Virus record (IMG/VR): IMGVR_UViG_3300031992_000021
Span: 64,001 to 128,000 of that record
DNA from: a virus
Lineage: Duplodnaviria > Caudoviricetes
Strand: one strand, 5' to 3'
Length of the DNA stretch: 64,000 nt
A program made the translations under genes and the position numbers. Every line of letters begins with the position of its first letter. Position 1 is the first letter of the stretch. Below are positions 38,533 through 55,600 of the stretch, piece by piece. The notes under the pieces are model-generated. The model did not search any database and was not told the origin of the DNA. It saw nothing but the letters and a program-made list of their open reading frames with translations.

Positions 38533-41500
38533 TCAAGCCTCCTTTATCTCGATTGGATCGTTAGGACCGATCTCTCCGTTGCGGTATGCCGCCACGGCCT
38601 CTGCCTTGCTGTTGAAGTACCTCGTAGGCTTCCTGGTCCTGCCCCTTGTAAGAGCCCACAACCCTGAAATCTGCTCCTTCTCTGGCTTGTAGCGCATCGA
38701 CTTGAGATCGGTAAGGCTGAACAGGTTCTTGGACGGAAGCATCTTCTCCATGGCCTGGTTCGCGGCCTTCATGCTCGCCGGCACGTGGATGTTGACGGTA
38801 TCTCCGTCGTGGTCCATGTTGAATCCGCTGTCGATGAGCGGACAGACGTGGATCGAACGCCCCTTGACGATATGAGGCTTGAACGCCATGATATTGAACT
38901 TGTGCCACGTAGGCGCACGGTCCATGATAACCGGCCTTTCCTCCATTGCGTCGTCAAGGATGTGCCTTGCCGTGGCGTTCTTCTCCTCGATCATCTTCTT
39001 CGCTGTAAGAGGGGAATACCCTCTCTGGATGAGCTTGCGCTCAACGTGCGGCTTGTACATTTCCCAGGCCATTTCCTCAGGGATGCCGATCTGGTCCATG
39101 TCGAGGTTCTTGTCCGGGATGGTGACGGAACGACCGACGTTGTCCTGCGTCTTGGATATCACCTTGGACTGGTACATGCCGAACTTTGGTATCGTGCCGA
39201 TGACCTGGCGTATGGCCCCTTTCAGGTTCTTCGCCTGGCCTTCTGCCGTGATCGGATCACCAAGTCCGTAGGCCGCCTTTACGGCGCCGTACACCGCAAG
39301 GCGCTCGTCGGCGAGCGCAGATGCCGGAAGCTCCTTGGCAAGTGCCTCGTAGTTGCTCTTCATCTCGATGAGATCCTTGTAGAGCTCGTTCATGTCTGGA
39401 ACGAGCGCCACATCTCCCATTTTGGCGACGGGGCGGAACATGGGAGGAAGGACCGGGACCCTTGTGATCATCCAGTCTTCAGGCTTCTTCCCCATCTCCT
39501 TCGCGGCCTTCAGGTATCCGAGCACCTTTATGGCGTTGTCCCGCTGCGATCCCCTGCGGTTCTTTATCTCTGCCCTGGCGCGTTCGATGGAGTCGTCGAT
39601 GTCTATCTTGGAGAGAGCATCCTTGATGGCGTCTCCGCCGGTCTTGCCGTTGAGTTCCTCGCGCCCGGAGAGAACCGCCTCCATCTTCTTGGCCGTAAGA
39701 CCGAGTACTCGGCGTACAGGCTCCTCCATCATCGGGTTTGGAACCGCCTCCGGAAGCACGATCATGCTCCAGCGGTTGCCTCCCATGCCGCCGGTCTTTC
39801 CGAGATCGAACATTCCTCCCTTCACAGGCTGGAAATCGGAGTCGACCATCTGCGAGTTCTCAAGGACGCGCCCCTGTGCGAGCTCGTCGATATCCGCATC
39901 GGTCTGAGGCATTATCGACGTGACGTCGCCCTTCTCGACGACGTTCACGCCGCCGGCCTTTAGCGTATTGAGGAACTTCTTGTAGATGAACGGCACTCCA
40001 GGCTCTTCGACCGGCAACCCAAGACGGTAGCGGCGCCAGAACTCGTCGTTCATCTGGCCGCGGGTCGTCATCGAGTCCTTGATCACCTCTGTTGCTCCGT
40101 GCGACAGGAGGGCGAGGTTGTCGAATCCGGATATGCGCTTCGCTCCGTCTACGCCTCCCTTGGCCGGCTGCTCGTCCTGCGTATAGGCTCCGTCAACGCC
40201 GCGGGCGGAGTATTTCTTCTCGGCGAGGTGATGAAAAGCCTTTACGTACGAATATCCATCGCCTACATTGCGGATTGTACGTCCTGTCTGAGGATCGAAA
40301 ACATCTGCAGTCTCCTTAACGCCGGCGTCGGCCATCTGCTTCTCTGTCCACGCAAGCCATCCCTCAGGAGGAGGAAGCTGCGGTAGACGGATCTGCTTTC
40401 CGGTCTTCTTGGCGACCTTGGCGAGATTCATGAGCATCACCTGCCCAGGAGCGACACGGGAAAGGAACCCCATCGGGTTCATGAGCATGTCGTAAGGCTC
40501 GTTTGTGGTGGCGTCCCGCGGCATCTTGTCCATGGGAAGTATTCCGCCGACAACACCCTTGAGCCCCTGTTCCGGCGACAGCTTGTCACCAACCTTCACA
40601 GGCGGCTCGCTCTTCACGATGACCTTTACTCCATGTGCGCCGGCCACGACGTCGGTGACTACTCCAGGCCAGTCGTGCTCCCATTTCTGGGACTTGTCGG
40701 TAAGCGCATTCTTGAGAACGCTCGACAGCTTCCCGAGCTGGGCATCTTCGGCCGAGAGCATCTTAGGCCCGATCGCCAGAATCATGGGATCGTCTCGATG
40801 GAGGACCGTCCCAACCTTCACGACGCCATTTTCGTCTATAGTGTCGGACTGGGCCTTCGTGTAGGCTTTCGGGAACGCGGCAAGATACTTGTTCCGTGCC
40901 ACCTGAACGCCCTCTTTCGTGTCCTGCTCGAACCCGTAGAGCCTCGAAGTGGCGAGCTTCTTGGCCGCATCTTCGGATATCACGATTGCGTCTTCGTAGG
41001 AGGAAACGCCTGCAGGAGCGGGAAGGACCGCAACCTTTAGGTTACGCCCCATGTTCATCGCGCCGGTCTTGGCGTCGGTGAAGTTCGAGTTTGCGAGAAT
41101 CCCGCCCTCCTGAACCTCGTCTCCTTTCTTGACCTGCGAAAAGTACGTTATGCCGGTCATCCGGTTGAACGGAAGCCCTTGTACAAGACTGGACGTATGA
41201 GTCTGTCCGTCCTTGCCGCGAATGACGATCTCCTTGTCGTTGGCCTTGATGACAGTGCCGGCGAACGGAGCCGTAAGACATCCCACCTTGCGCCCGTAGA
41301 ACTCGCTGAAAGTAGCCTTTCCGTCGTCCATGAGGCTGTCCACCAGCGGTACTTCGCCCTCCTTCTGCGGAAGGTACTGCTCCCAGAACTTGGACATGTA
41401 GAACTGGCGCCCTGCCTGAACCGTTGAAGGCATCGGAGTCATGTTGATGCCGGCGGAAACAGTATTTCCGAATCCGGGAACCATGTAGTCGACCTCGTCA

Positions 41501-43890
41501 CGATCAACCATGGTGGGAATACCCTTGCGCATGGCGTACAGACGAGGAGCCTTCGGATCCTGTCCGGGGAAAGCGACCGTGTGCGATGCCGCGTCGTCAA
41601 GGGCCACGTATCTGGTCTTGCCGGTCCGAAGATCCATCATCTTGTTGTAGAGCCTGTTGTCGCTGCCCTTCATGGTGCCGAGCGCCGCCCGGACGTCGAT
41701 GCCGATCCCGAAAGATTCAGGGCCGCTGATGAAGTCGACAAACCCAAGATAGTCTCCCTGAACGTTGCGTGCCTCCGGAGTAACAAGATCCGGAGAAGAT
41801 ATGCCGCCCTCGCCCAAACGCGTGATGCGCGACTGCTGGGTGAGGATTGACAGGGGGTTAGCCTCCTCGCCCGGCATGGCGAGGCCGGAACCCGAAAGGA
41901 AAGTGTCGAGATACGGAGCAAGAGCGTTGCGCCCGATTCTGGCAAGGTTCTTGTCCCGCTTTGCCCTGAACAGCATGGACTTGGTGAGCCTGCCGGCGTC
42001 CTTGTCGATGCGCTCGCGCATCATGTCCTCGATGCCGTAGAACTTGCTGAAGCGAGGGTTGTCGCGTTCGTCAGGATCTTCGGCGCCGCGGTTGATGTTG
42101 AGGAGCTTCTGGGCCGCCCTGAGGATCACCTGTCCGGTAACGCCATTTACATTCTCAAGTCCGAGCGTGCGTACGACAACATCCGGATCGAGTCCGCTTC
42201 CTGAAAGCGCCTCGCTCACGAACTTTGCCTTGTCCGCAGGAGAAAGGCTCATGTCGGCCTTGCGTCCGGCATACCTGGCGTAGACCTTGTCGAGGGCACG
42301 CGGATCCATCTTTCCGACGTTTACGGAAGTCACCTCGTTGCCCCAAGACTTCCTGATGTCCTCGTCAGACACGCCGATCGCCCTGAGCACGGGATATAGA
42401 GGCACATGGCCCTGCCCGACGCTCATGTTGAGGGCGCCGGTCTCGCGGTCGAGACCTATCCTGAATCCAAGACCGTTCGCGACGTTGAACTGGGATTCGA
42501 GTTCGCCGTTCTGCTTGCGGCGAACGTACACGCCAGGGGAGAGGCGTGCCTGAGAAATGACCGTATACTCGTTGCCGTTGTTGATGATCGTCCCGCGGTC
42601 GGTATAGTACGGAACCCTTATGATCCCGTCGCGTCGCTCGTCGAGAACCTTACCAGTCTTCTTGTCTGTAAGGCGCCATGTGCCGGCTATGGAACACCCA
42701 AGCCTGCGGTTGTTGAGAAGGGCCTGCTTCTGCTGCTCGAGCGTGTAGGACGTAGGCCCCTCGTACTTCACGTCGCGAAGTTCGAGCCTTACGTCGTCGT
42801 CCTCGACCGGGAAACGGTTCTTGACCGCCTCCAGGACGTTGTCCATGATGGCAGTGCGGGTAGCCGGAGCATCGATGAACGAGCGGAGCTTGACGCCGGC
42901 CGGAACTCCTTCCATGGGATCGTCCTGCTTGGCCTCTGCCGTCTTCTCCTGTTTCTTTGCGAAAAACTTTCTGACCTTCTCGCGCTGCTCTTCCTCAAGC
43001 TTGACAAGGAGCTTTTCCGCATCCTCTTCGGAATCAGCCAGAGGCAACGGCCAGTCTCCATGCCCGCCGTACATTGCCAGTCCAAGCGTCCTGTTCTTTT
43101 CTCCGTCATGCCCTGTATGATCAAGCCAGCAACACCAGTAGTCACGGCCATTATCGCGCTTGCCACCGTAGTACCATCCAACTATCTTCCCTATCTTCGG
43201 TCCTCTCACGCAAGGTTCGACGACCCACTTCCCCTTAGGGAACTTCTTCTTCATCTCCTCTGGGACAGGATGGTCGGCATCATCCTCCGGAGCAGCTTCC
43301 GCAGCCTTGACCTTTATGGTATCGACTATCGGCTTTACGGACGCGTACTCGTGAAAAGGCTTGGTCTTGCGGGTGGAAGAATCGATCCACTTGCGGAACT
43401 CGGCCTTCGTGACCGGCGTGATCCAGCCAAGTCCGCCCCAACCCTTCTGGTAGCAGGCAAGGTACGTCTTCTTGGCGTCCTCGATGCTGTCGAATCCGTA
43501 CATGACCTTGTGCTCGTCGAACTTCTTGGTCTTGGGATCGATCTGGTCGATGACGAACACGGCTCCCTTCTCAGGATGGTCGGAAAGGTAGATGTCGACA
43601 GGATCCCCGTCGACGCTCTCCGTGCCGCGGATGTCGCCGTAGTCGCAGGCGAGCATGTTGCGCCACTTCGTTCCGTCAGGAGACGTCCCGGAACGGTACG
43701 AGCCCTTCGGATTCTCGATGGAAATGCGGAAGCCGTCAAGGTTGAGATGTACCTTGCGGTAGTTTCCGACGCGCTTCTGCCCGTCGGTAGGATCCTTTGC
43801 GGCATCCGGAGCGCCTGCGTTCACAGCCCTCTGCGCAGGCGAAGACGCCCGCTTGCCGAACATCTGCTGTATGGTTTCGGTAAGGGTCAT
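38533..43890 (-). CDS. Fused multisubunit-type RNA polymerase (beta + N-terminal half of beta') with N-terminal InPase-like domain
   Basis: beta motifs (NGNEYTVISQARLSPGV, NPLS..TQQSRITRLGEGGI, YEDAIVISE, GDKLSPEQGLKGVV, NPMGFLSR, QPAKGG); beta' motifs (VPVLPPMFRP, GRSV, DRAPTWHK, FNMDHDGD at 38800-38820); N-terminal ISIENPKGS..DYG..DGDPVD..DEHKVMYGF. Confidence 0.92.
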   Translation of the reverse strand: MTLTETIQQMFGKRASSPAQRAVNAGAPDAAKDPTDGQKRVGNYRKVHLNLDGFRISIENPKGSYRSGTSPDGTKWRNMLACDYGDIRGTESVDGDPVDIYLSDHPEKGAVFVIDQIDPKTKKFDEHKVMYGFDSIEDAKKTYLACYQKGWGGLGWITPVTKAEFRKWIDSSTRKTKPFHEYASVKPIVDTIKVKAAEAAPEDDADHPVPEEMKKKFPKGKWVVEPCVRGPKIGKIVGWYYGGKRDNGRDYWCCWLDHTGHDGEKNRTLGLAMYGGHGDWPLPLADSEEDAEKLLVKLEEEQREKVRKFFAKKQEKTAEAKQDDPMEGVPAGVKLRSFIDAPATRTAIMDNVLEAVKNRFPVEDDDVRLELRDVKYEGPTSYTLEQQKQALLNNRRLGCSIAGTWRLTDKKTGKVLDERRDGIIRVPYYTDRGTIINNGNEYTVISQARLSPGVYVRRKQNGELESQFNVANGLGFRIGLDRETGALNMSVGQGHVPLYPVLRAIGVSDEDIRKSWGNEVTSVNVGKMDPRALDKVYARYAGRKADMSLSPADKAKFVSEALSGSGLDPDVVVRTLGLENVNGVTGQVILRAAQKLLNINRGAEDPDERDNPRFSKFYGIEDMMRERIDKDAGRLTKSMLFRAKRDKNLARIGRNALAPYLDTFLSGSGLAMPGEEANPLSILTQQSRITRLGEGGISSPDLVTPEARNVQGDYLGFVDFISGPESFGIGIDVRAALGTMKGSDNRLYNKMMDLRTGKTRYVALDDAASHTVAFPGQDPKAPRLYAMRKGIPTMVDRDEVDYMVPGFGNTVSAGINMTPMPSTVQAGRQFYMSKFWEQYLPQKEGEVPLVDSLMDDGKATFSEFYGRKVGCLTAPFAGTVIKANDKEIVIRGKDGQTHTSSLVQGLPFNRMTGITYFSQVKKGDEVQEGGILANSNFTDAKTGAMNMGRNLKVAVLPAPAGVSSYEDAIVISEDAAKKLATSRLYGFEQDTKEGVQVARNKYLAAFPKAYTKAQSDTIDENGVVKVGTVLHRDDPMILAIGPKMLSAEDAQLGKLSSVLKNALTDKSQKWEHDWPGVVTDVVAGAHGVKVIVKSEPPVKVGDKLSPEQGLKGVVGGILPMDKMPRDATTNEPYDMLMNPMGFLSRVAPGQVMLMNLAKVAKKTGKQIRLPQLPPPEGWLAWTEKQMADAGVKETADVFDPQTGRTIRNVGDGYSYVKAFHHLAEKKYSARGVDGAYTQDEQPAKGGVDGAKRISGFDNLALLSHGATEVIKDSMTTRGQMNDEFWRRYRLGLPVEEPGVPFIYKKFLNTLKAGGVNVVEKGDVTSIMPQTDADIDELAQGRVLENSQMVDSDFQPVKGGMFDLGKTGGMGGNRWSMIVLPEAVPNPMMEEPVRRVLGLTAKKMEAVLSGREELNGKTGGDAIKDALSKIDIDDSIERARAEIKNRRGSQRDNAIKVLGYLKAAKEMGKKPEDWMITRVPVLPPMFRPVAKMGDVALVPDMNELYKDLIEMKSNYEALAKELPASALADERLAVYGAVKAAYGLGDPITAEGQAKNLKGAIRQVIGTIPKFGMYQSKVISKTQDNVGRSVTIPDKNLDMDQIGIPEEMAWEMYKPHVERKLIQRGYSPLTAKKMIEEKNATARHILDDAMEERPVIMDRAPTWHKFNIMAFKPHIVKGRSIHVCPLIDSGFNMDHDGDTVNIHVPASMKAANQAMEKMLPSKNLFSLTDLKSMRYKPEKEQISGLWALTRGRTRKPTRYFNSKAEAVAAYRNGEIGPNDPIEIKEA

Positions 43891-49472: not shown

Positions 49473-50141
49473 TCATATCTCCGGGAAGTCTGAGAGGTAC
49501 TGCTTGTCACGGATCCAGTCCGGATACTCAAGGCTTTTCTTGACCTGTATGAAGTAGCTCCTGTCGGTTGAGTAGCTTCTGCTGCAGAGCTGGTTGAAAT
49601 AGTCGGCATGGAACTCGGTGTCGTGCTTCCTAAATTCGCCGAGCCACGCCTCATATCCATCCCTGAGCAGGATGACGGCATGGGCGCCCCACAGGTTCCC
49701 ATTTATCCTTCCGAAGCCATCCTTGACGTCGCATAGGGAGTGGTTGTTCTTGCCATTGTCGTATTCCCTAATGAAGTGCAGATTTCCGAGCGTGATGAGA
49801 TGAGCGTCATCAGGTATCCCATTCTCTGAAAACAGGGCATCGAGCTTTTCATGGCATTGATTCATGGGATAGGCGTCGGACTCGAATATCGTGACGCTCG
49901 GCCAATTCATCGCAAAAGCCATGTTCACGATGGAAAAGTGTGACAGTGCGCATGCGACCATGGGGACACGTTCCGTACTGCACTGCATCAGACCTCTTGG
50001 GAAAAGTCCAAAATACTTGCGAGGTAGGTCACTGAATCCGGCGGACCGCATGCGAGAACAGAATCTGCCATACTCGAAATCGTCTTTTACGATGACAAAC
50101 GAGTTCTCCATCATGTTTTCTATCGTGAATTTCATAGTCAA
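49473..50141 (-). CDS. Glycosyltransferase family 25-like protein
   Basis: ACALSH...VTIFESDA and WGAHAVIL resemble GT25 motifs (GCxLSH, IxEDD, GAHAY). Confidence 0.55.
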   Translation of the reverse strand: MTMKFTIENMMENSFVIVKDDFEYGRFCSRMRSAGFSDLPRKYFGLFPRGLMQCSTERVPMVACALSHFSIVNMAFAMNWPSVTIFESDAYPMNQCHEKLDALFSENGIPDDAHLITLGNLHFIREYDNGKNNHSLCDVKDGFGRINGNLWGAHAVILLRDGYEAWLGEFRKHDTEFHADYFNQLCSRSYSTDRSYFIQVKKSLEYPDWIRDKQYLSDFPEI

Positions 50142-50142
50142 C

Positions 50143-50814
50143 CTACTTCGTAGTGCACCTCGGGTTCGAGTAGTCGCTGTCGTAGATCACCTCGAAGTCT
50201 TCGCTGTCGAAGAACGACTGGGCAAGGTACTTCTTGCTCTTGATCTTGATCATCCCGTTCCAGAGGGATGCAGTCTCAAGAGGAATGTCGAGATCCGGGT
50301 AGCACTTGCGGACAAGCTCATGGCAGTAGACCGGCTCCGAATGCTTTGCCGACGTCTCCTCCACCTCGAAATCGTAGTCGTACTTGTTTCCGAGATACGC
50401 ATGGGCTATCGACGAGGCCTTCCTCGTAAGAGCGTCCATGTCCCTTCCGTCCTTCTCCACGGGACGCAGGATGGCGAACCCGTCGCACCTCAGGAAGTCG
50501 AGAATGTCGATCTTCTGGACTCCTCCGCTCATGGCGTGGATGATGATTCCGCATCCGATGTATATCCCGGAATGCGAAAACCTTCCAGGAATGAAGTAGC
50601 CGTCAAGGTAGTTGCGGTATCGCCTCACGAACACGTCGCCTCTCTTGGCGAAACTCATGGCCTTCCTTATGCTTGAGGCCTTGACGTCATACCCATGTGG
50701 GTCGTATACGATGAACATCGGCCAACGATACACCTTGATCTTGCCAAAAACGTTAAGGAAGGCTATCCTTAGGCTCTTGACAAGTCCAAAAAAGATATTT
50801 GACAAAACGTTCAT
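50143..50814 (-). CDS. Permuted papain-like NlpC/P60 (YiiX/YaeF) amidase
   Basis: GDVFV..PGRFSHSGIYIG..IIHA..YDYDF..VYCHELV (His before Cys). Confidence 0.8.
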   Translation of the reverse strand: MNVLSNIFFGLVKSLRIAFLNVFGKIKVYRWPMFIVYDPHGYDVKASSIRKAMSFAKRGDVFVRRYRNYLDGYFIPGRFSHSGIYIGCGIIIHAMSGGVQKIDILDFLRCDGFAILRPVEKDGRDMDALTRKASSIAHAYLGNKYDYDFEVEETSAKHSEPVYCHELVRKCYPDLDIPLETASLWNGMIKIKSKKYLAQSFFDSEDFEVIYDSDYSNPRCTTK

Positions 50815-50821
50815 GCATAAA

Positions 50822-50830
50822 ATTATACCA
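50822..50830 (-). promoter_or_regulatory. Extended -10 promoter TGGTATAAT
   Basis: Exact motif ending 7 nt upstream of the ATG at 50814. Confidence 0.65.
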
Positions 50831-50866
50831 AATTGGGTGCCATGGAAGAAGACTTCTGGTGAAAAA

Positions 50867-50941
50867 TGGATGAGGAGGTGTGAGTCGAACACACATGGGG
50901 CGATTCAAAGCCGCCCGTACTTTCCGTTGTACTACTCCTCA
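50867..50941 (-). tRNA. tRNA-Gln(TTG)
   Basis: Cloverleaf, loop CTTTGAA, encoded CCA. Confidence 0.85.
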
Positions 50942-50945
50942 ATGA

Positions 50946-51019
50946 TGGTCGGAGATGAGTGAGTCGAACACTCGCCTTCTGGGCCCAAGCCAGGCGTGCT
51001 GCCGTTATACCAATCTCCG
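50946..51019 (-). tRNA. tRNA-Pro(TGG)
   Basis: CGGAGAT acceptor, loop CTTGGGC, CCA. Confidence 0.85.
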
Positions 51020-51020
51020 A

Positions 51021-51096
51021 TGGAGCTGAGTAATGGAGTCGAACCATCAACCTGCTGCTTACAAGGCAGCCGCACTGCCTATTGTGCTAACTCAGC
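51021..51096 (-). tRNA. tRNA-Thr(TGT)
   Basis: Loop CTTGTAA, CCA. Confidence 0.9.
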
Positions 51097-51097
51097 A

Positions 51098-51173
51098 TGG
51101 TACTCCGAGAGGGGATCGAACCCTCAACCCGCAGATTAAGAATCTGCTGCTCTACCAGTTGAGCTACCGGAGC
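51098..51173 (-). tRNA. tRNA-Lys(CTT)
   Basis: Loop TTCTTAA, CCA. Confidence 0.9.
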
Positions 51174-51180
51174 ACTTAAA

Positions 51181-51256
<76 letters not shown>

Positions 51257-51258
51257 AA

Positions 51259-51337
51259 TGGTTGCGGAGGCAGGGATTCGGACCCGCGTGGACCTGCTTA
51301 TGAGACAGGCGCTGGAACCACTCCAGTCCACTCCGCA
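51259..51337 (-). tRNA. tRNA-Met(CAT)
   Basis: Loop CTCATAA, CCGCAACCA end; initiator versus elongator unclear. Confidence 0.8.
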
Positions 51338-51362
51338 ATGACTTGACTAAGTATACCATAAA

Positions 51363-51437
51363 TGGCTGGGGAAGTGTGAATCGAACACACATACTCCGGG
51401 TCAGAGCCGGATGCACTTGCCGTTGTGCTATTCCCCA
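51363..51437 (-). tRNA. tRNA-Gln(CTG)
   Basis: U1-A72, G73, loop CTCTGAC. Confidence 0.9.
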
Positions 51438-51438
51438 A

Positions 51439-51513
51439 TGGAGCATCCAGCGGGAATCGAACCCGCATCATCTGCTTGGAAGGCAGAGACCCTGGCCATT
51501 GGATGATGGATGC
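51439..51513 (-). tRNA. tRNA-Gly(TCC)
   Basis: Loop CTTCCAA, U73. Confidence 0.9.
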
Positions 51514-51526
51514 ACAAATGCTAAAA

Positions 51527-51603
51527 TGGTTGTCGCGGCAGGACTCGGACCTGCGTATGCCGGTGTATCAGACCGGTGCGTTAACCAACTTCGCCACGCG
51601 ACA
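51527..51603 (-). tRNA. tRNA-Ile(GAT)
   Basis: Loop CTGATAC, CCA. Confidence 0.85.
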
Positions 51604-51609
51604 ATTGAA

Positions 51610-51686
51610 TGGAGATCGAGGTGGGAATCGAACCCACATTTTCGGTTTTGCAGACCGCCGCCCATTCCAATATTGACAACTCGACC
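51610..51686 (-). tRNA. tRNA-Cys(GCA)
   Basis: Loop CTGCAAA, U73. Confidence 0.85.
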
Positions 51687-51698
51687 TATAATTACAGA

Positions 51699-51780
51699 TG
51701 GTGCGCGATGAGGGACTTGAACCCCCACGCCGAAGCGTCTGGACCTAAACCAGATGTGTCTGCCGTTTCACCAATCGCGC
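51699..51780 (-). tRNA. tRNA-Leu(TAG)
   Basis: Loop TTTAGGT, variable arm. Confidence 0.9.
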
Positions 51781-51787
51781 ATTTCAA

Positions 51788-51861
51788 TGGCAGGAGTTCC
51801 TTGAGTCGAACAAGGCTCATCGCTTTTGGAGAGCGAGGCACGGCCGATATACCAAACTCCT
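51788..51861 (-). tRNA. tRNA-Trp(CCA)
   Basis: AGG start, loop CTCCAAA, G73. Confidence 0.85.
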
Positions 51862-51862
51862 A

Positions 51863-51940
51863 TGGTGGGCGATACAGGAGTCGAACCTGTAGAGACCTGC
51901 TGTCTGAGAGCAGTATGACTGCCAGTTGCATCAATCGCCC
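51863..51940 (-). tRNA. tRNA-Leu(CAG), short variable region
   Basis: Loop CTCAGAC, 6-nt variable region. Confidence 0.8.
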
Positions 51941-51946
51941 GTCAAA

Positions 51947-52029
51947 TGGTCGCCACAGAGGGACTCGAACCCCCATGCACAAGGCCGGCGGGTTTGAGCC
52001 GCCTACGTCTGCCGTTCCGTCATGTGGCG
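51947..52029 (-). tRNA. tRNA-Leu(CAA)
   Basis: Loop CTCAAAC, variable arm. Confidence 0.85.
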
Positions 52030-52030
52030 T

Positions 52031-52114
52031 TGGTGCCGAGTGAGGGACTCCAACCCCCAAGCGCTAGGCGTCGAGGCTTAAACTCGATGTGTATGGCAGT
52101 TTCACCAACTCGGC
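52031..52114 (-). tRNA. tRNA-Leu(TAA)
   Basis: Loop TTTAAGC, variable arm. Confidence 0.85.
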
Positions 52115-52118
52115 AAAA

Positions 52119-52193
52119 TGGCGGGGTATAGCGGAGTCGAACCGCTCCAAGGAGATCGACAATCTCCCGTACTAACCGATATACGAATACCCC
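52119..52193 (-). tRNA. tRNA-Asp(GTC)
   Basis: Loop TTGTCGA, G73. Confidence 0.85.
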
Positions 52194-52201
52194 AATGAAT
52201 A

Positions 52202-52296
52202 TGGCGGAGAAGCCGCGACTCGAACGCGGACGTGACCTTGCGACCACTACTGGCTGTTTAGCAAACAGCTGCCTTGCCAATTAGGCTTACTTCTCC
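52202..52296 (-). tRNA. tRNA-Ser(GCT)
   Basis: Loop TTGCTAA, long variable arm, G73. Confidence 0.9.
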
Positions 52297-52297
52297 A

Positions 52298-52390
52298 TGG
52301 CGGCAGGAGGGGATCTCGAAACCCCACAGGGCTCATCACCCTTACTCGCGGTGTTCAGGGCCGCTACCTTGCCTTTAGGTTTATCCTGCC
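52298..52390 (-). tRNA. tRNA-Ser(TGA), atypical C33
   Basis: Loop CCTGAAC, long variable arm, G73. Confidence 0.75.
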
Positions 52391-52394
52391 AGAA

Positions 52395-52488
52395 TGGCGG
52401 AGGTGGAGGATCACGATACCCCACACGGCCTTGCGACCGCTACTGGACGGCTTCCGACCGTCTGCCTTGCCTTTAGGCTTACACCTCC
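52395..52488 (-). tRNA. tRNA-Ser(GGA), atypical C33 and T-arm
   Basis: Loop TCGGAAG, long variable arm, T-loop ATCGTGA. Confidence 0.75.
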
Positions 52489-52492
52489 AAAA

Positions 52493-52586
52493 TGGCGGAG
52501 AGGGGGAGTCTTGAAATCCCACGGGGCCTTGCGACCCGTACTGGATGCTTTCGAGGCATCTTCCTTGCCTTTAGGATTACCTCTCC
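52493..52586 (-). tRNA. tRNA-Ser(CGA)
   Basis: Loop CTCGAAA, long variable arm. Confidence 0.85.
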
Positions 52587-52590
52587 AAAA

Positions 52591-52674
52591 TGGTGGGACT
52601 GAGAGGACTCGAACCTCCACGCCGAAGCACTACCACCTCAAGGTAGCGTGTACTGCCAATTTCACCACAGTCCC
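52591..52674 (-). tRNA. tRNA-Leu(GAG)
   Basis: Loop TTGAGGT, variable arm. Confidence 0.9.
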
Positions 52675-52687
52675 GTTAAATCGAATA

Positions 52688-52764
52688 TGGCAGCTCCTGG
52701 GGGACTCGAACCCCGCATTTCCTGGCTGAGAACCAGGCGTACTGACCGATTATACGAAGGAGCC
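52688..52764 (-). tRNA. tRNA-Glu(CTC)
   Basis: Loop TTCTCAG, G73. Confidence 0.85.
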
Positions 52765-52767
52765 ACT

Positions 52768-52845
52768 TGGTAGCGGCAGCGGGGATCGAACCCGCAGATT
52801 CCTCCTTGAAAGGGAGGTGGCTCTAACCGGTTTGCCTATGCCGCC
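52768..52845 (-). tRNA. tRNA-Glu(TTC)
   Basis: Loop CTTTCAA, CCA. Confidence 0.85.
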
Positions 52846-52853
52846 ACTTAAAA

Positions 52854-52939
52854 TGGTCGTGCGTCAGGGTATCGAACCCCGCCTCCCCTAGGGGCCCAGA
52901 TTTACAGTCTGGTGGCCGTCCTTAGACCTATACCGCACG
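52854..52939 (-). tRNA. tRNA-Tyr(GTA)
   Basis: Loop CTGTAAA, variable arm, C1-G72. Confidence 0.85.
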
Positions 52940-52940
52940 T

Positions 52941-53015
52941 TGGCTCTAGGGGCCGGAGTCGAACCGGCAACCACCGCATTAACAGTGCGGCGCACTACCA
53001 TTGTGCTACCCTAGA
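52941..53015 (-). tRNA. tRNA-Asn(GTT)
   Basis: U1-A72, loop CTGTTAA, G73. Confidence 0.9.
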
Positions 53016-53033
53016 ATCGAAATCTTCTTCCAG

Positions 53034-53045
53034 TTGTCAAAGAGC
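53034..53045 (-). promoter_or_regulatory. boxA-like antitermination element GCTCTTTGACAA
   Basis: Resembles rRNA-operon boxA (GCTCTTTAACA); 18 nt upstream of the first tRNA. Confidence 0.6.
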
Positions 53046-53069
53046 GAAGTGGTTCTTTTGCATGTGCCA

Positions 53070-53112
53070 CAAAAACATTCAGGCGACCCTGCTTTTTCTC
53101 GCGGGGCCGCCT
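53070..53112 (-). terminator. Terminator hairpin in the tRNA-array leader (candidate attenuator)
   Basis: AGGCGGCCC...GGGTCGCCT stem followed by GAATGTTTTTG. Confidence 0.6.
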
Positions 53113-53142
53113 TCCTTCTCTTCCTGTCAGATCGATTATGCT

Positions 53143-53283
53143 TCAGCAATCCAAGCCTGACACCGGCAGCCCCGCTTTCTGGCTAATATCTTCACAATAG
53201 CCAGATCCAAGCCACTCGTTTGAGAGCGACTTGGCTTGCAACAGATTCTGCTGCTTTGCGACTATGGATGTGCTAACGAACAT
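53143..53283 (-). CDS. Putative 46-aa leader peptide MFVSTSIVAKQQNLLQAKSLSNEWLGSGYCEDISQKAGLPVSGLDC
   Basis: ATG about 18 nt after the predicted TSS with a weak GTGAG RBS; below the ORF-track size cutoff; lies between promoter and terminator. Confidence 0.5.
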   Translation of the reverse strand: MFVSTSIVAKQQNLLQAKSLSNEWLGSGYCEDISQKAGLPVSGLDC

Positions 53284-53306
53284 TTCTTATCTCACTGACA
53301 CCGCAT

Positions 53307-53336
53307 AGTATATCAAAAACCGGATGTGCGTGTCAA
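53307..53336 (-). promoter_or_regulatory. Sigma70-type promoter of the tRNA array
   Basis: TTGACA-18-TATACT with TGn extension. Confidence 0.8.
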
Positions 53337-53361
53337 TGGCCATGATCGGAGTATAGTCCTT

Positions 53362-53592
53362 TCAGAAGAATACAAGGTAAAAAGGCCACAGAAGGATGAA
53401 CTTGAGCTTCTCCCTAAAGCCCATCGGAGGCAGCGAAACGCCGTGAACCCGAGCCCTTCTCCTGCACTCGATGTCATGCGCTTCGCAGACGATCCACATA
53501 AGGGAAGCGCCTGCGAGGTATATGAACATGAGGAATATGGCAATGTTTTTCACGGAAAATATTATATCAGATTGGAAGGCAAAATCACACAT
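53362..53592 (-). CDS. Small membrane protein (start MCDFAFQ)
   Basis: Two hydrophobic segments, LWP motif. Confidence 0.45.
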   Translation of the reverse strand: MCDFAFQSDIIFSVKNIAIFLMFIYLAGASLMWIVCEAHDIECRRRARVHGVSLPPMGFREKLKFILLWPFYLVFF

Positions 53593-53593
53593 G

Positions 53594-53845
53594 TCACTCC
53601 AGTTTGATGTATTTATACGGTATTTTCCCCCATACGCAGATCTCGTCAAGCTCTGGCTGCCAAGTTGTTATCCTGACGTCCTGGTAATCCCTTCTAAATG
53701 CGTCTATGTCCACCGATACGAGCGCAAGATCCCTCCACCAGCTGTACCTTCCCTCGCTAAGGCACACGAAGTTGTACCTTGGAACAAGCCCATTCTCCAT
53801 TATCGACGCAAGGTTCTCTCGAGGAGTCCTATGGTATAGAGTCAC
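53594..53845 (-). CDS. Small ADP-ribosyltransferase-fold protein (KptA/Tpt1 C-domain or DUF952-like)
   Basis: LYHRT..ENLASIMENGLVP...VCLS...E matches LYHGT...I...GL.P...V.LS. Confidence 0.55.
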   Translation of the reverse strand: MTLYHRTPRENLASIMENGLVPRYNFVCLSEGRYSWWRDLALVSVDIDAFRRDYQDVRITTWQPELDEICVWGKIPYKYIKLE

Positions 53846-55600
53846 TTAGACCTCCTTTGGATCGAGCCTGTCGTCGATCGGCGCCTCGTCGTTGGTAAGG
53901 CCTCCGCCGAACGCGCTCTCGGGAATCATGTCGTCCACGGACAGACCGAGAAGCTTCATGGCCACCATGCTCGCAAAGCAGAGCGCATGGCAGAAGTCGT
54001 CCGGATGCGACGCGTTCCTCAGATACAGCCTGTGCGTCATGCCGCCGACCTCGGTCGTTGTCTCGTAGGGCGACAGCAGGTCGTCGGTGTAGATGTCGAA
54101 CCCGTCCTTCGGGAAGAAGATCCTTCCGTTCCTGATAGCTAAAAAAAGGGTGTCCAACGCCATGACCTTGTCGATGGTCCAGCACTGCACGACGTTCGTC
54201 CTGCCTCTGGACTGGTTCTTTCCGAAGAGCTTCAGCTGCCTAGTGTACTGCATCTGTACGATCGGGAGCCCGAACCGCTTTGCCAGTATCTGGTTCTTGT
54301 CGAGACCCATGCCGGCGTCGGCAGCAACGGCGACGACGTTGTAGAACCGGCATATCTTGGCGATGTCGGTCATCTGCTCGTCCGGATCGTACCCGCGGTA
54401 TCTCCTGGCCCACAGCGTGTCTATGCGGCCGTTCGGACGTATTCCTATGACAGTTATGACCGTGAACGAGCTAAGTTCTGCCCCACCCCAGTCGATGCCG
54501 GCAACGATGAAGCTGTAGCGTCCGGGATTGGTCTTGACCTCCTCCTGAAGGCGCTTGGTAGACGGAAGCACGCTCTGCTGCTTGATGTGGTGCCTCGTGA
54601 GCAGCCTCTGACCGACTGAGTAGGATATTCCGAGGTTTTCCTGGATGAACGTGGCGAGAGTCCCTGTCGTGAGCTTCCTGAGGAGCTTCTGCCAGTTGTT
54701 CATGTCGTCCACGATCGCAGGACAGACAACCTGGGGGATGTGGTATCCCCTGAAGCTGTACATCCTGTCCTCGTAGCCTCCTACCCACTGCCCGTTCCTG
54801 ACGTTTATGCGCTTTCCGCAGTGAAGGCAGTGGAGACCGTCGGCGCCGATCATCTTGAGGACGCCTCCGTCGAGGTTCGGTATGGCCCACGTTCCGCACC
54901 CCTCGCACTTCATGACCCACTCGCACATTGAGCTCTTCTGCCACAGGGTCTCGATGTAGTTTTCGGTAACTTTGGCCGTTCCGGTGAACCTGCGGCATCC
55001 GTACTTGGACGATGTGAGCGATTCGGAGATGATGGGGACCGTCTCGTCCGTCTGGTCCTGGATCTCGTCGAAGTCGATCATGTCCGCCATGATACCGCGG
55101 GCGCGGTCGGCCGAAGTCTTGGCGTAGGTGAGCTGTATGCCGGCGCCGTTTGCGAACGTCTGGTGCCCAGTGGCACTTATGATCTTCGCATCGGACAGGA
55201 CGCCGGCCATGCTCTTGGACTGGAGCTTCTGCGCCAAGGGGCAAGACCGAATGGCCTCAGTCAGGTAAAGGTCGCTGTAGCGGCGCGTCTGTTCCTGCAG
55301 CGGAGCTACGTACAGCAGCTGGAACTGCGGGATGCAGAGCGGTATGAACACCTCGCTCCTCGACAGGGTCATCGACTTGCCAAGCTGACGGCCAGACATT
55401 ATGATGAGGTCGGGATAGAGCTTCTTCTCGAAAAGTACGTCGAACTGCGGCCTGTCCTTCAGGCTGAAAGGCTCACCCTTCACCCTGAACAGGTGCGGCA
55501 GGAGCGCGGCGTTGTTCGTGGCGTTTATCTGGGCCGCTATCTCGCTGTTCTTGACGAGCGACGGAACCTTCTTGATGATCTCTCGGTCTATCGACGCCAT
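53846..55600 (-). CDS. terL: Terminase large subunit
   Basis: Walker A SGRQLGKS, Walker B IDFDEIQD, FTGT motif, CxxC/CxxC zinc site, nuclease GIDWG and DDFCHA. Confidence 0.92.
   Translation of the reverse strand: MASIDREIIKKVPSLVKNSEIAAQINATNNAALLPHLFRVKGEPFSLKDRPQFDVLFEKKLYPDLIIMSGRQLGKSMTLSRSEVFIPLCIPQFQLLYVAPLQEQTRRYSDLYLTEAIRSCPLAQKLQSKSMAGVLSDAKIISATGHQTFANGAGIQLTYAKTSADRARGIMADMIDFDEIQDQTDETVPIISESLTSSKYGCRRFTGTAKVTENYIETLWQKSSMCEWVMKCEGCGTWAIPNLDGGVLKMIGADGLHCLHCGKRINVRNGQWVGGYEDRMYSFRGYHIPQVVCPAIVDDMNNWQKLLRKLTTGTLATFIQENLGISYSVGQRLLTRHHIKQQSVLPSTKRLQEEVKTNPGRYSFIVAGIDWGGAELSSFTVITVIGIRPNGRIDTLWARRYRGYDPDEQMTDIAKICRFYNVVAVAADAGMGLDKNQILAKRFGLPIVQMQYTRQLKLFGKNQSRGRTNVVQCWTIDKVMALDTLFLAIRNGRIFFPKDGFDIYTDDLLSPYETTTEVGGMTHRLYLRNASHPDDFCHALCFASMVAMKLLGLSVDDMIPESAFGGGLTNDEAPIDDRLDPKEV

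Follow-up and report, generated by a model that had tools for sequence, protein, structure and literature searches.

A conserved leader with a short open reading frame, competing RNA helices and a boxA element upstream of a phage tRNA array

The tRNA array and its leader

The window analysed here, a stretch of 64,000 nucleotides, comes from an IMG/VR virus record of 162,950 bp with a completeness of about 92%, of which it covers bases 64001-128000; all phage genes run along the minus strand. The window contains an array of 25 tRNA genes, preceded by the large terminase gene and an 83-aa ORF and followed, on its 3' side, by a C92 amidase gene. Directly in front of the array lies a leader, predicted to contribute about 285 nt of transcript before the first tRNA. 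Its features, together with the genes on either side, are listed here in the order of transcription, all coordinates being those of the window.

53846-55600: large terminase gene, upstream of the tRNA leader
53307-53336, minus strand: sigma-70-type promoter, predicted transcription start near 53301
53336-53331, minus strand: -35 box TTGACA, separated by an 18-nt spacer from the -10 box
53315-53307, minus strand: extended -10 box TGaTATACT (TATACT at 53312-53307)
53260-53300, minus strand: segment 1 (transcript nt 3-43), comprising the 5' UTR with a weak Shine-Dalgarno-like GAGA, the AUG and codons 1-8
53283 (ATG) to 53143 (TGA), minus strand: leader ORF, 46 codons plus TGA
53253-53237, 53233-53206 and 53204-53177, minus strand: hairpins H1, H2 and H3 inside the ORF, present in MFE and consensus folds
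53165-53175, minus strand: r2, GCGGGGCTGCC, 5' strand of the putative antiterminator, codons 37-40
53124-53161, minus strand: H5, hairpin enclosed by r2:r3, spanning the stop codon of the ORF and able to pair with segment 1 instead
53101-53111, minus strand: r3, GGCGGCCCCGC, common to the putative antiterminator (with r2) and to the terminator-like hairpin (with r4)
53082-53092, minus strand: r4, GCAGGGTCGCC, which pairs with r3
53067-53081, minus strand: tail after r4, TGAATGTTTTTGTGG
53049-53070, minus strand: small hairpin GUGG...CCAC, 2 nt upstream of boxA, in a boxB-like position
53034-53045, minus strand: boxA, GCTCTTTGACAA
53029-53045, minus strand: rrn-type boxA 17-mer, GCTCTTTGACAACTGGA, on the sense strand, 13 nt upstream of tRNA-Asn
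50867-53015, minus strand: array of 25 tRNA genes, from Asn-GTT to Gln-TTG, with CCA encoded

A preliminary description of the locus had placed here a TTGACA-18-TATACT promoter, a 46-codon ORF, a terminator hairpin and a boxA-like element, followed by 25 tRNAs. Promoter and ORF were both found exactly where described. The promoter scores 11/12 against the consensus, has a TG before the -10 box and is the best sigma-70-like site in a 6-kb scan; the ATG of the ORF lies 18 nt after the predicted transcription start. The Shine-Dalgarno-like site of the ORF is weak, being GAGA here and AGGA in the related leader L155, whereas GGAG-type sites are common at other genes of the phage. The stop codon is located 31 nt upstream of the terminator-like hairpin.

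All 25 tRNAs, with the anticodons originally assigned to them, were recovered by ARAGORN at a relaxed threshold, and 20 of them at default settings. The default search misses Tyr-GTA, Ser-CGA, Ser-GGA, Ser-TGA and a tRNA with a CAT anticodon (52854-52939, 52298-52586, 51259-51337); since these five are also among the 7 of 25 without an Rfam listing, they are to be regarded as atypical. The CAT-anticodon tRNA could be of the Ile2 (lysidine) type; codon 7 of the leader ORF is ATA. A tRNA-Arg(CCT) gene is found elsewhere in the phage genome, outside the array. Rfam cmscan of 50000-54000, with E up to 1, detected no T-box riboswitch or other cis-regulator, its output consisting of the tRNAs and of weak opposite-strand chance matches over tRNA genes (Plastid-ycf2, far below threshold).

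The phage encodes a polymerase of its own, a 1785-aa protein (38533-43890) in which an inorganic pyrophosphatase domain is fused to domains of RNA polymerase beta (Rpb2_6) and beta' (Rpb1_2), and yet the tRNA array is fronted by a host-type promoter with a host-type boxA. On the plus strand, a promoter-like sequence, TTGACA-16-AATTAT (50799-50826), faces the 3' end of the array.

Homologous leaders and the open frame

Seventeen homologous leaders, 66-98% identical, were identified in gut and other metagenomes, the related contigs, here denoted by L numbers, coming from pig gut, other gut and similar metagenomes. Leaders L021-L026 were found by a peptide word search, and L155 and L156 by profile search. 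L030 was reached through a DNA 16-mer, in a metagenome scan in which, among the matches listed, it was the only genuine one, the others being due to chance. Routes blind to the ORF led to L148-L154, through a spurious ORF over tRNA-Asn/Tyr, and to L147, through a tRNA-Asn 38-mer. As 8 of the 17 homologs came from searches with the peptide, with a consequent bias towards intact ORFs, the ORF-blind set is the only one that can be counted fully. No homologous leader was found in GenBank phages, which returned only tRNA-Asn look-alikes; the IMG/VR relatives of the terminase, at 53-74% aa identity, provided no comparison, since the terminase gene has no tRNAs nearby in any of them; in one, G005, the tRNAs are dispersed.

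The -35 and -10 boxes are retained in every homolog. Homology sets in near 53344, about 8 nt before the -35 box, different genes being inserted further upstream; the leaders of L021 and L022 share 91-94% identity with that of the window, and their flanking genes 79-88%. The interval that separates the terminase/83-aa ORF from the -35 box (53337-53593) is an insertion hot spot across relatives: the extra genes vary (cupin, 186-aa, 113-aa and other ORFs, in L022, L023, L025, L026, L148, L149 and L153), and always stop just short of the promoter of the tRNA array. The complete arrays behind homologous leaders contain 5, 13, 14, 14, 22 and 25 tRNAs. The array thus behaves like an accordion, the same leader being followed by 5 to 25 tRNAs (L021, L148, L150, L153, L154, L026); in L026, a deletion of boxA and of the first tRNAs fuses the leader to tRNA-Leu(TAG).

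In 17 of the 18 leaders an ORF of 41-46 codons starts from the homologous ATG. In L153 a CAG to TAG change at codon 35 lies 3 nt before r2. The ORF of L154 survives a 9-nt in-frame deletion, and a 1-nt insertion within r2 leads to a new stop nearby; L147 keeps a 45-codon frame, with the frame of r2 unchanged, though its 5' two thirds can barely be aligned. The reading frame of r2 is the same in all leaders except L154, and the ORF stop falls within -6 to +19 nt of r2 in all of them. Within 15 close leaders the ORF is free of indels, indels of 1 nt being seen elsewhere, in spacer, 5' UTR and hairpin loop. The chance of an intact start and frame when as many substitutions as observed are scattered at random, indels being left uncounted, is 0.135 for L154, 0.078 for L155 and 0.06 for L147.

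At the level of the peptide, dN/dS ranges from 0.7 to 0.95 in seven comparisons, close to neutrality, and is 0.23 for the last 23 codons of window and L155. Substitutions are distributed over the three codon positions in a ratio of about 9:8:12, and where residues are conserved they fall on helix strands H2, H3 and r2. Relatives of the L147 peptide were sought, and none was found. A frame that is kept while the peptide drifts is what is predicted, at the sequence level, for a regulatory leader ORF. The preliminary description had looked to related tRNA arrays for a conserved upstream ORF with compensatory covariation, and would have taken homologs lacking ORF or pairing as evidence against its proposal. 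The ORF is cut short in L153 only, and the helices described below are kept, at about 90-95% of their pairs, with some compensatory changes.

Competing pairings and the boxA element

The leader as a whole (286 nt) folds with z = -6.0 relative to shuffled sequences (0/200). The three hairpins inside the ORF, H1-H3, have 82-96% of cells paired in 15 sequences, the changes being mostly one-sided G-U/G-C replacements.

Downstream of them, strands can be combined in different ways. In a constrained fold, segment 1 pairs over 29 bp with 53156-53124, that is with the H5 region, and 90.5% of the cells of this segment 1:mid-leader pairing are paired in 15 sequences. Strand r2 pairs in turn with r3, over 11 bp including one G-U, at about -25 kcal/mol. 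This antiterminator pairing, between codons 37-40 and the 5' arm of the hairpin, had been proposed from the start, and proved to exceed chance expectation: a complement to r3 like r2 occurs in 0/2000 dinucleotide shuffles of the upstream 190 nt, and in 0.12% of 190-nt windows of the genome. In the homologs, positions 7-8 of r2 vary between CT, TC and CC, facing GG of r3 each time, and one compensatory change, from G-C to U-A, is found in L156. Hairpin H5 features double-sided changes in 6/13 pairs; r2:r3 and H5, taken together, are 94% paired in 15 distinct sequences.

The third pairing, r3:r4, has an energy of about -19 to -24 kcal/mol and z = -3.0. The hairpin at 53112-53070 had been described as a terminator. 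Its stem is indeed present, with 10/11 pairs, but the U-run is displaced, the T5 run beginning 6 nt past the stem, so that this is not a textbook terminator, and a simple consensus terminator scan does not call the site. About 95% (94.7%) of r3:r4 is paired in 15 sequences, with one compensation, G-C to A-U, in L147; the helix is weak in L156 (-7.5) and L147 (-11.5), and the U-run tail is kept in most homologs and broken in L154 and L026.

Helices 1:2, 2:3 and 3:4 are mutually exclusive, and each is about 90-95% paired over 15-16 sequences. Changes on both sides of a pair number 5 in 1:2 (1.3 +/- 0.8 in shuffled alignments), 7 in 2:3 including H5 (1.1 +/- 0.9 when shuffled, 1-4 in slid controls) and 1 in 3:4, figures which come from few divergent sequences and have to be read considering that related sequences can beat shuffles even without structure.

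The balance between these structures was sketched with an equilibrium model and an assumed ribosome footprint, from which actual folding kinetics may differ. The states are close in energy: at the point where the hairpin is complete, and with no ribosome, the terminator ensemble has an advantage of about 6 kcal/mol. A ribosome footprint on codons 1-10 makes terminator and antiterminator ensembles equal; with the ribosome on codons 13-31 the terminator is favoured by 4.5-8.7 kcal/mol, and on codons 34-43 the antiterminator becomes impossible. As equilibrium favours the terminator for ribosomes on codons 13-31, the polarity of a switch would depend on kinetics.

Alternative pairings of CCAAGTC with two copies of GGCTTGG, also pointed out initially, do exist in the window. 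The second copy, however, reads GGAATGG in most homologs and sits in an internal loop of H5, and this alternative pairing was rejected.

The element noted as boxA-like turned out to be a 17-mer identical to genuine boxA sites of rrn leaders. It matches 10/11 positions of GYTCTTTAANA, the gamma-proteobacterial consensus (PMC5725501). The 17-mer is found just past promoters in many bacterial contigs, often several contigs per genome. In L223 an identical copy precedes the 16S 5' end by about 110 nt, and in one bacterial contig the 17-mer follows a spacer tRNA; at nine bacterial loci there is no rRNA within the retrieved stretch, yet the context was read as that of rrn leaders. The same 17-mer is also the boxA of Pseudomonas ribH. 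In the Pseudomonas oryzihabitans group (L168, L193, L210, L215, L229) it comes after an FMN riboswitch and immediately precedes an ATG, in agreement with the ribH boxA context previously reported (PMC5725501).

Among the phage leaders, boxA is invariant in 13 and nearly so in L147, and the GUGG...CCAC hairpin combines an invariant stem with a variable loop (window, L154, L155, L147). In L147 an insert of about 170 nt, rich in hairpins and with a T-run at its end (L147:8470-8635), lies between boxA and tRNA-Asn. A first boxA pattern searched in viral contigs gave unrelated matches, save one other phage contig with promoter and boxA, L019 (IMGVR_UViG_3300007735_001031). Here, near 1432-1448 on the minus strand, the boxA 17-mer recurs about 35 nt after TTGACG-17-TATAGT; a tRNA-Arg lies about 700 nt downstream of boxA, and the leader ORF is absent. 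The use of boxA by phage RNA genes may thus be wider than the tRNA-leader homologs described here.

How the leader may act

Judged from its sequence and conservation, the leader is a real cis-regulatory unit, composed of promoter, short ORF, antiterminator/terminator, boxA and tRNAs. The conserved unit, the open frame with a drifting peptide and the maintenance of competing helices are together what a ribosome-dependent attenuator predicts. Such an attenuator, of the trp type, sensing translation in general and followed by Nus-type antitermination, is the most likely mechanism, and we attribute to it about even chances of being correct.

Host RNA polymerase would read the phage tRNA operon from the sigma-70-type promoter, and the act of translating the ORF, rather than the peptide itself, would be what counts. 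With no ribosome, r3:r4 would form and transcription would end near 53070; the same would happen when a ribosome, running to the end of the ORF, covers or blocks r2. A ribosome delayed early in the ORF would keep segment 1 off the mid-leader; with segment 1 held off, H5 and r2:r3 could form, and the polymerase would read through. Past the stop, it would transcribe boxA and be made termination-resistant by host machinery of the NusB/NusE type, in which state it would cover the 2.1-kb untranslated tRNA array. A regulated stop ahead of boxA makes sense because a polymerase past boxA should ignore terminators. The leader would in this way report general decoding speed or translation capacity, which could drop on tRNA depletion, starvation or translation-targeting defence, and the amount of tRNA made is probably tied to the translational performance of the infected cell. 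A full feedback loop may be envisaged, in which slower decoding (by host tRNA cleavage or depletion, starvation or defence) favours the antiterminator, and a boxA-modified polymerase transcribes the whole backup tRNA set; it would give phages a way, so far undescribed, to adjust tRNA supply to need, and we put it forward as a tentative proposal, on the doubtful side. The displaced U-run, the weak r3:r4 of L156 and L147, the weak Shine-Dalgarno site and the early stop of L153 count against the attenuator. In Firmicutes tight coupling of transcription and translation is not the rule, which would also count against it if the host is one of them.

The main rival is an untranslated structured leader, in which helices and boxA act purely as RNA and the ORF is carried along by constraint on that RNA. 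Such a leader might be a platform for folding, processing or antitermination, as in rrn leaders, or might switch in response to polymerase speed, NTPs, Nus factors or some other ligand. In its favour are the near-neutral peptide, with substitutions spread about 9:8:12 over codon positions and its conserved stretches falling on strands of H2, H3 and r2, the weak Shine-Dalgarno site and the nonsense variant L153, as well as the strong fold z-score and a boxA borrowed from rrn logic. Against it, the frame is open from the same ATG in L154 and L147, both divergent and found through ORF-blind routes (joint chance roughly 0.01, indels uncounted), 1-nt indels occur in spacer, 5' UTR and hairpin loop but not in the ORF of the 15 close leaders, and the stop codon always lies at -6 to +19 nt from r2; we consider it unlikely, though far from negligible. 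The opposite possibility, a small protein with a function of its own accompanied by incidental RNA features, seems scarcely credible. Gene callers do predict the ORF in many contigs, and the dN/dS of 0.23 between window and L155 over the last 23 codons is in its favour, but the seven other comparisons (0.7-0.95), the radical replacements (L/S/P, G/W, C/Y), the C-terminus frameshifted in L154 and truncated in L153, and the failure to find any family or distant homologs beyond the leader all speak against selection on the product.

According to the preliminary description, the ORF would be a codon-sampling pan-tRNA sensor; in such a model its nearly non-redundant codons would have been selected to mirror the anticodons of the array. 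The counts on which this was based are exact: 31 of the first 33 codons and 37 of 46 overall are distinct, and cognate codons are present for 19 of 25 anticodons. Among windows of the phage genes, the background originally suggested, 0/40,561 reach 31/33, but this null was judged inappropriate and replaced by local non-coding sequence, where 0.5% of windows reach 31 distinct codons, and by composition-matched shuffles, which give P of about 0.002 for 31/33, a cut-off at 33 codons picked after the data were seen, and 0.009 for 37/46. Diversity is high in L147 too (37/45, P=0.025), but with respect to their own composition it is at or below chance in L154 (26/41, P=0.99), L155 (P=0.85), L026 (P=0.83), L156 (P=0.70), L150 (P=0.31) and L021 (P=0.13). 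The window represents the family maximum, resting partly on one unique synonymous codon, GCA at codon 9, which is GCC in 7/7 close relatives first aligned, where the counts are lower. Cognate enrichment is mild (hypergeometric P = 0.037, relatives being similar; P of about 0.02-0.15 overall); as no array anticodon starts with A, T-ending codons are missing from the 25 exact cognates, and leaving out T-ending codons weakens the enrichment to P of about 0.06, by our own estimate. The reported absence of Arg and His holds true for leader and array in the window, but Arg and/or His codons are found in related leaders (L021, L150, L148, L154, L156, L147), in relatives whose arrays lack matching tRNAs. 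As one leader fronts arrays of 5, 13, 14, 22 or 25 tRNAs, 2-14 kinds of leader amino acids have no array tRNA. Nor would a stall anywhere in codons 1-33 produce read-through, as had been envisaged: the equilibrium model allows it for about the first 10 codons only, and not for codons 13-31. A run of regulatory codons is absent, and codon diversity and content are neither conserved nor track the content of the array. A leader reporting a designed codon panel is thus not supported by these sequences, and we regard it as very improbable.

Phage tRNA genes are usually regarded either as a constant addition serving codon usage or as decoys for anticodon nucleases. If the ribosome-dependent attenuator is true, a translation-sensing leader combined with host rRNA antitermination would make phage tRNA supply regulated and demand-driven. 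Leader-peptide attenuation, familiar from amino-acid and resistance operons, would then apply to genes of the translation machinery as well. The leader is small and modular, begins exactly at the promoter and travels with arrays of very different size.

In the literature searched, no account of attenuation or of a boxA in front of phage tRNA arrays came to light. Among known systems, the leader recalls in the first place the leader-peptide attenuators of amino-acid operons, such as trpL, hisL, pheL and the ilv leaders (PMC1183508, PMC3082878), with which it shares a promoter-proximal short ORF, exclusive 1:2, 2:3 and 3:4 pairings, a stop codon beside segment 2 and an unconstrained peptide sequence. 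Unlike them, it has no regulatory codon run, an ORF 2-3 times longer and a displaced U-run, is followed by boxA, is carried by a phage and would regulate tRNAs, not enzymes. A second term of comparison is antitermination in rrn leaders, where boxB-boxA-boxC act with NusB/NusE/NusA/NusG/SuhB (PMC10250234, PMC5725501), and at lambda nut sites. As in rrn leaders, a sense-strand boxA, with a small hairpin just upstream, stands before long untranslated structured RNA genes; unlike in rrn leaders, the phage boxA is not close to the promoter, lying about 255 nt from the start, and comes only after an ORF and a terminator-like hairpin.

The toiL-topAI leader contains an antibiotic-sensing leader ORF, toiL, which works through Rho. 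Attenuators in the leaders of resistance genes, such as mef/mel, also sense translation stress (PMC4335068). In the phage leader, as in these systems, slowing of the ribosome at non-specific positions of the ORF would be the signal that governs premature termination; the toiL and mef/mel systems, unlike the phage leader, control protein-coding genes. We know of no system of this type acting on tRNA genes or coupled to boxA. In the E. coli pyrBI attenuator a 44-codon leader ORF continues across the terminator, and coupling between transcription and translation is governed by UTP-dependent pausing. The ORF of the phage leader is of similar length, and the position of the ribosome relative to the terminator, as proposed here, would likewise decide on read-through; unlike in pyrBI, the phage ORF stops 31 nt upstream of the hairpin.
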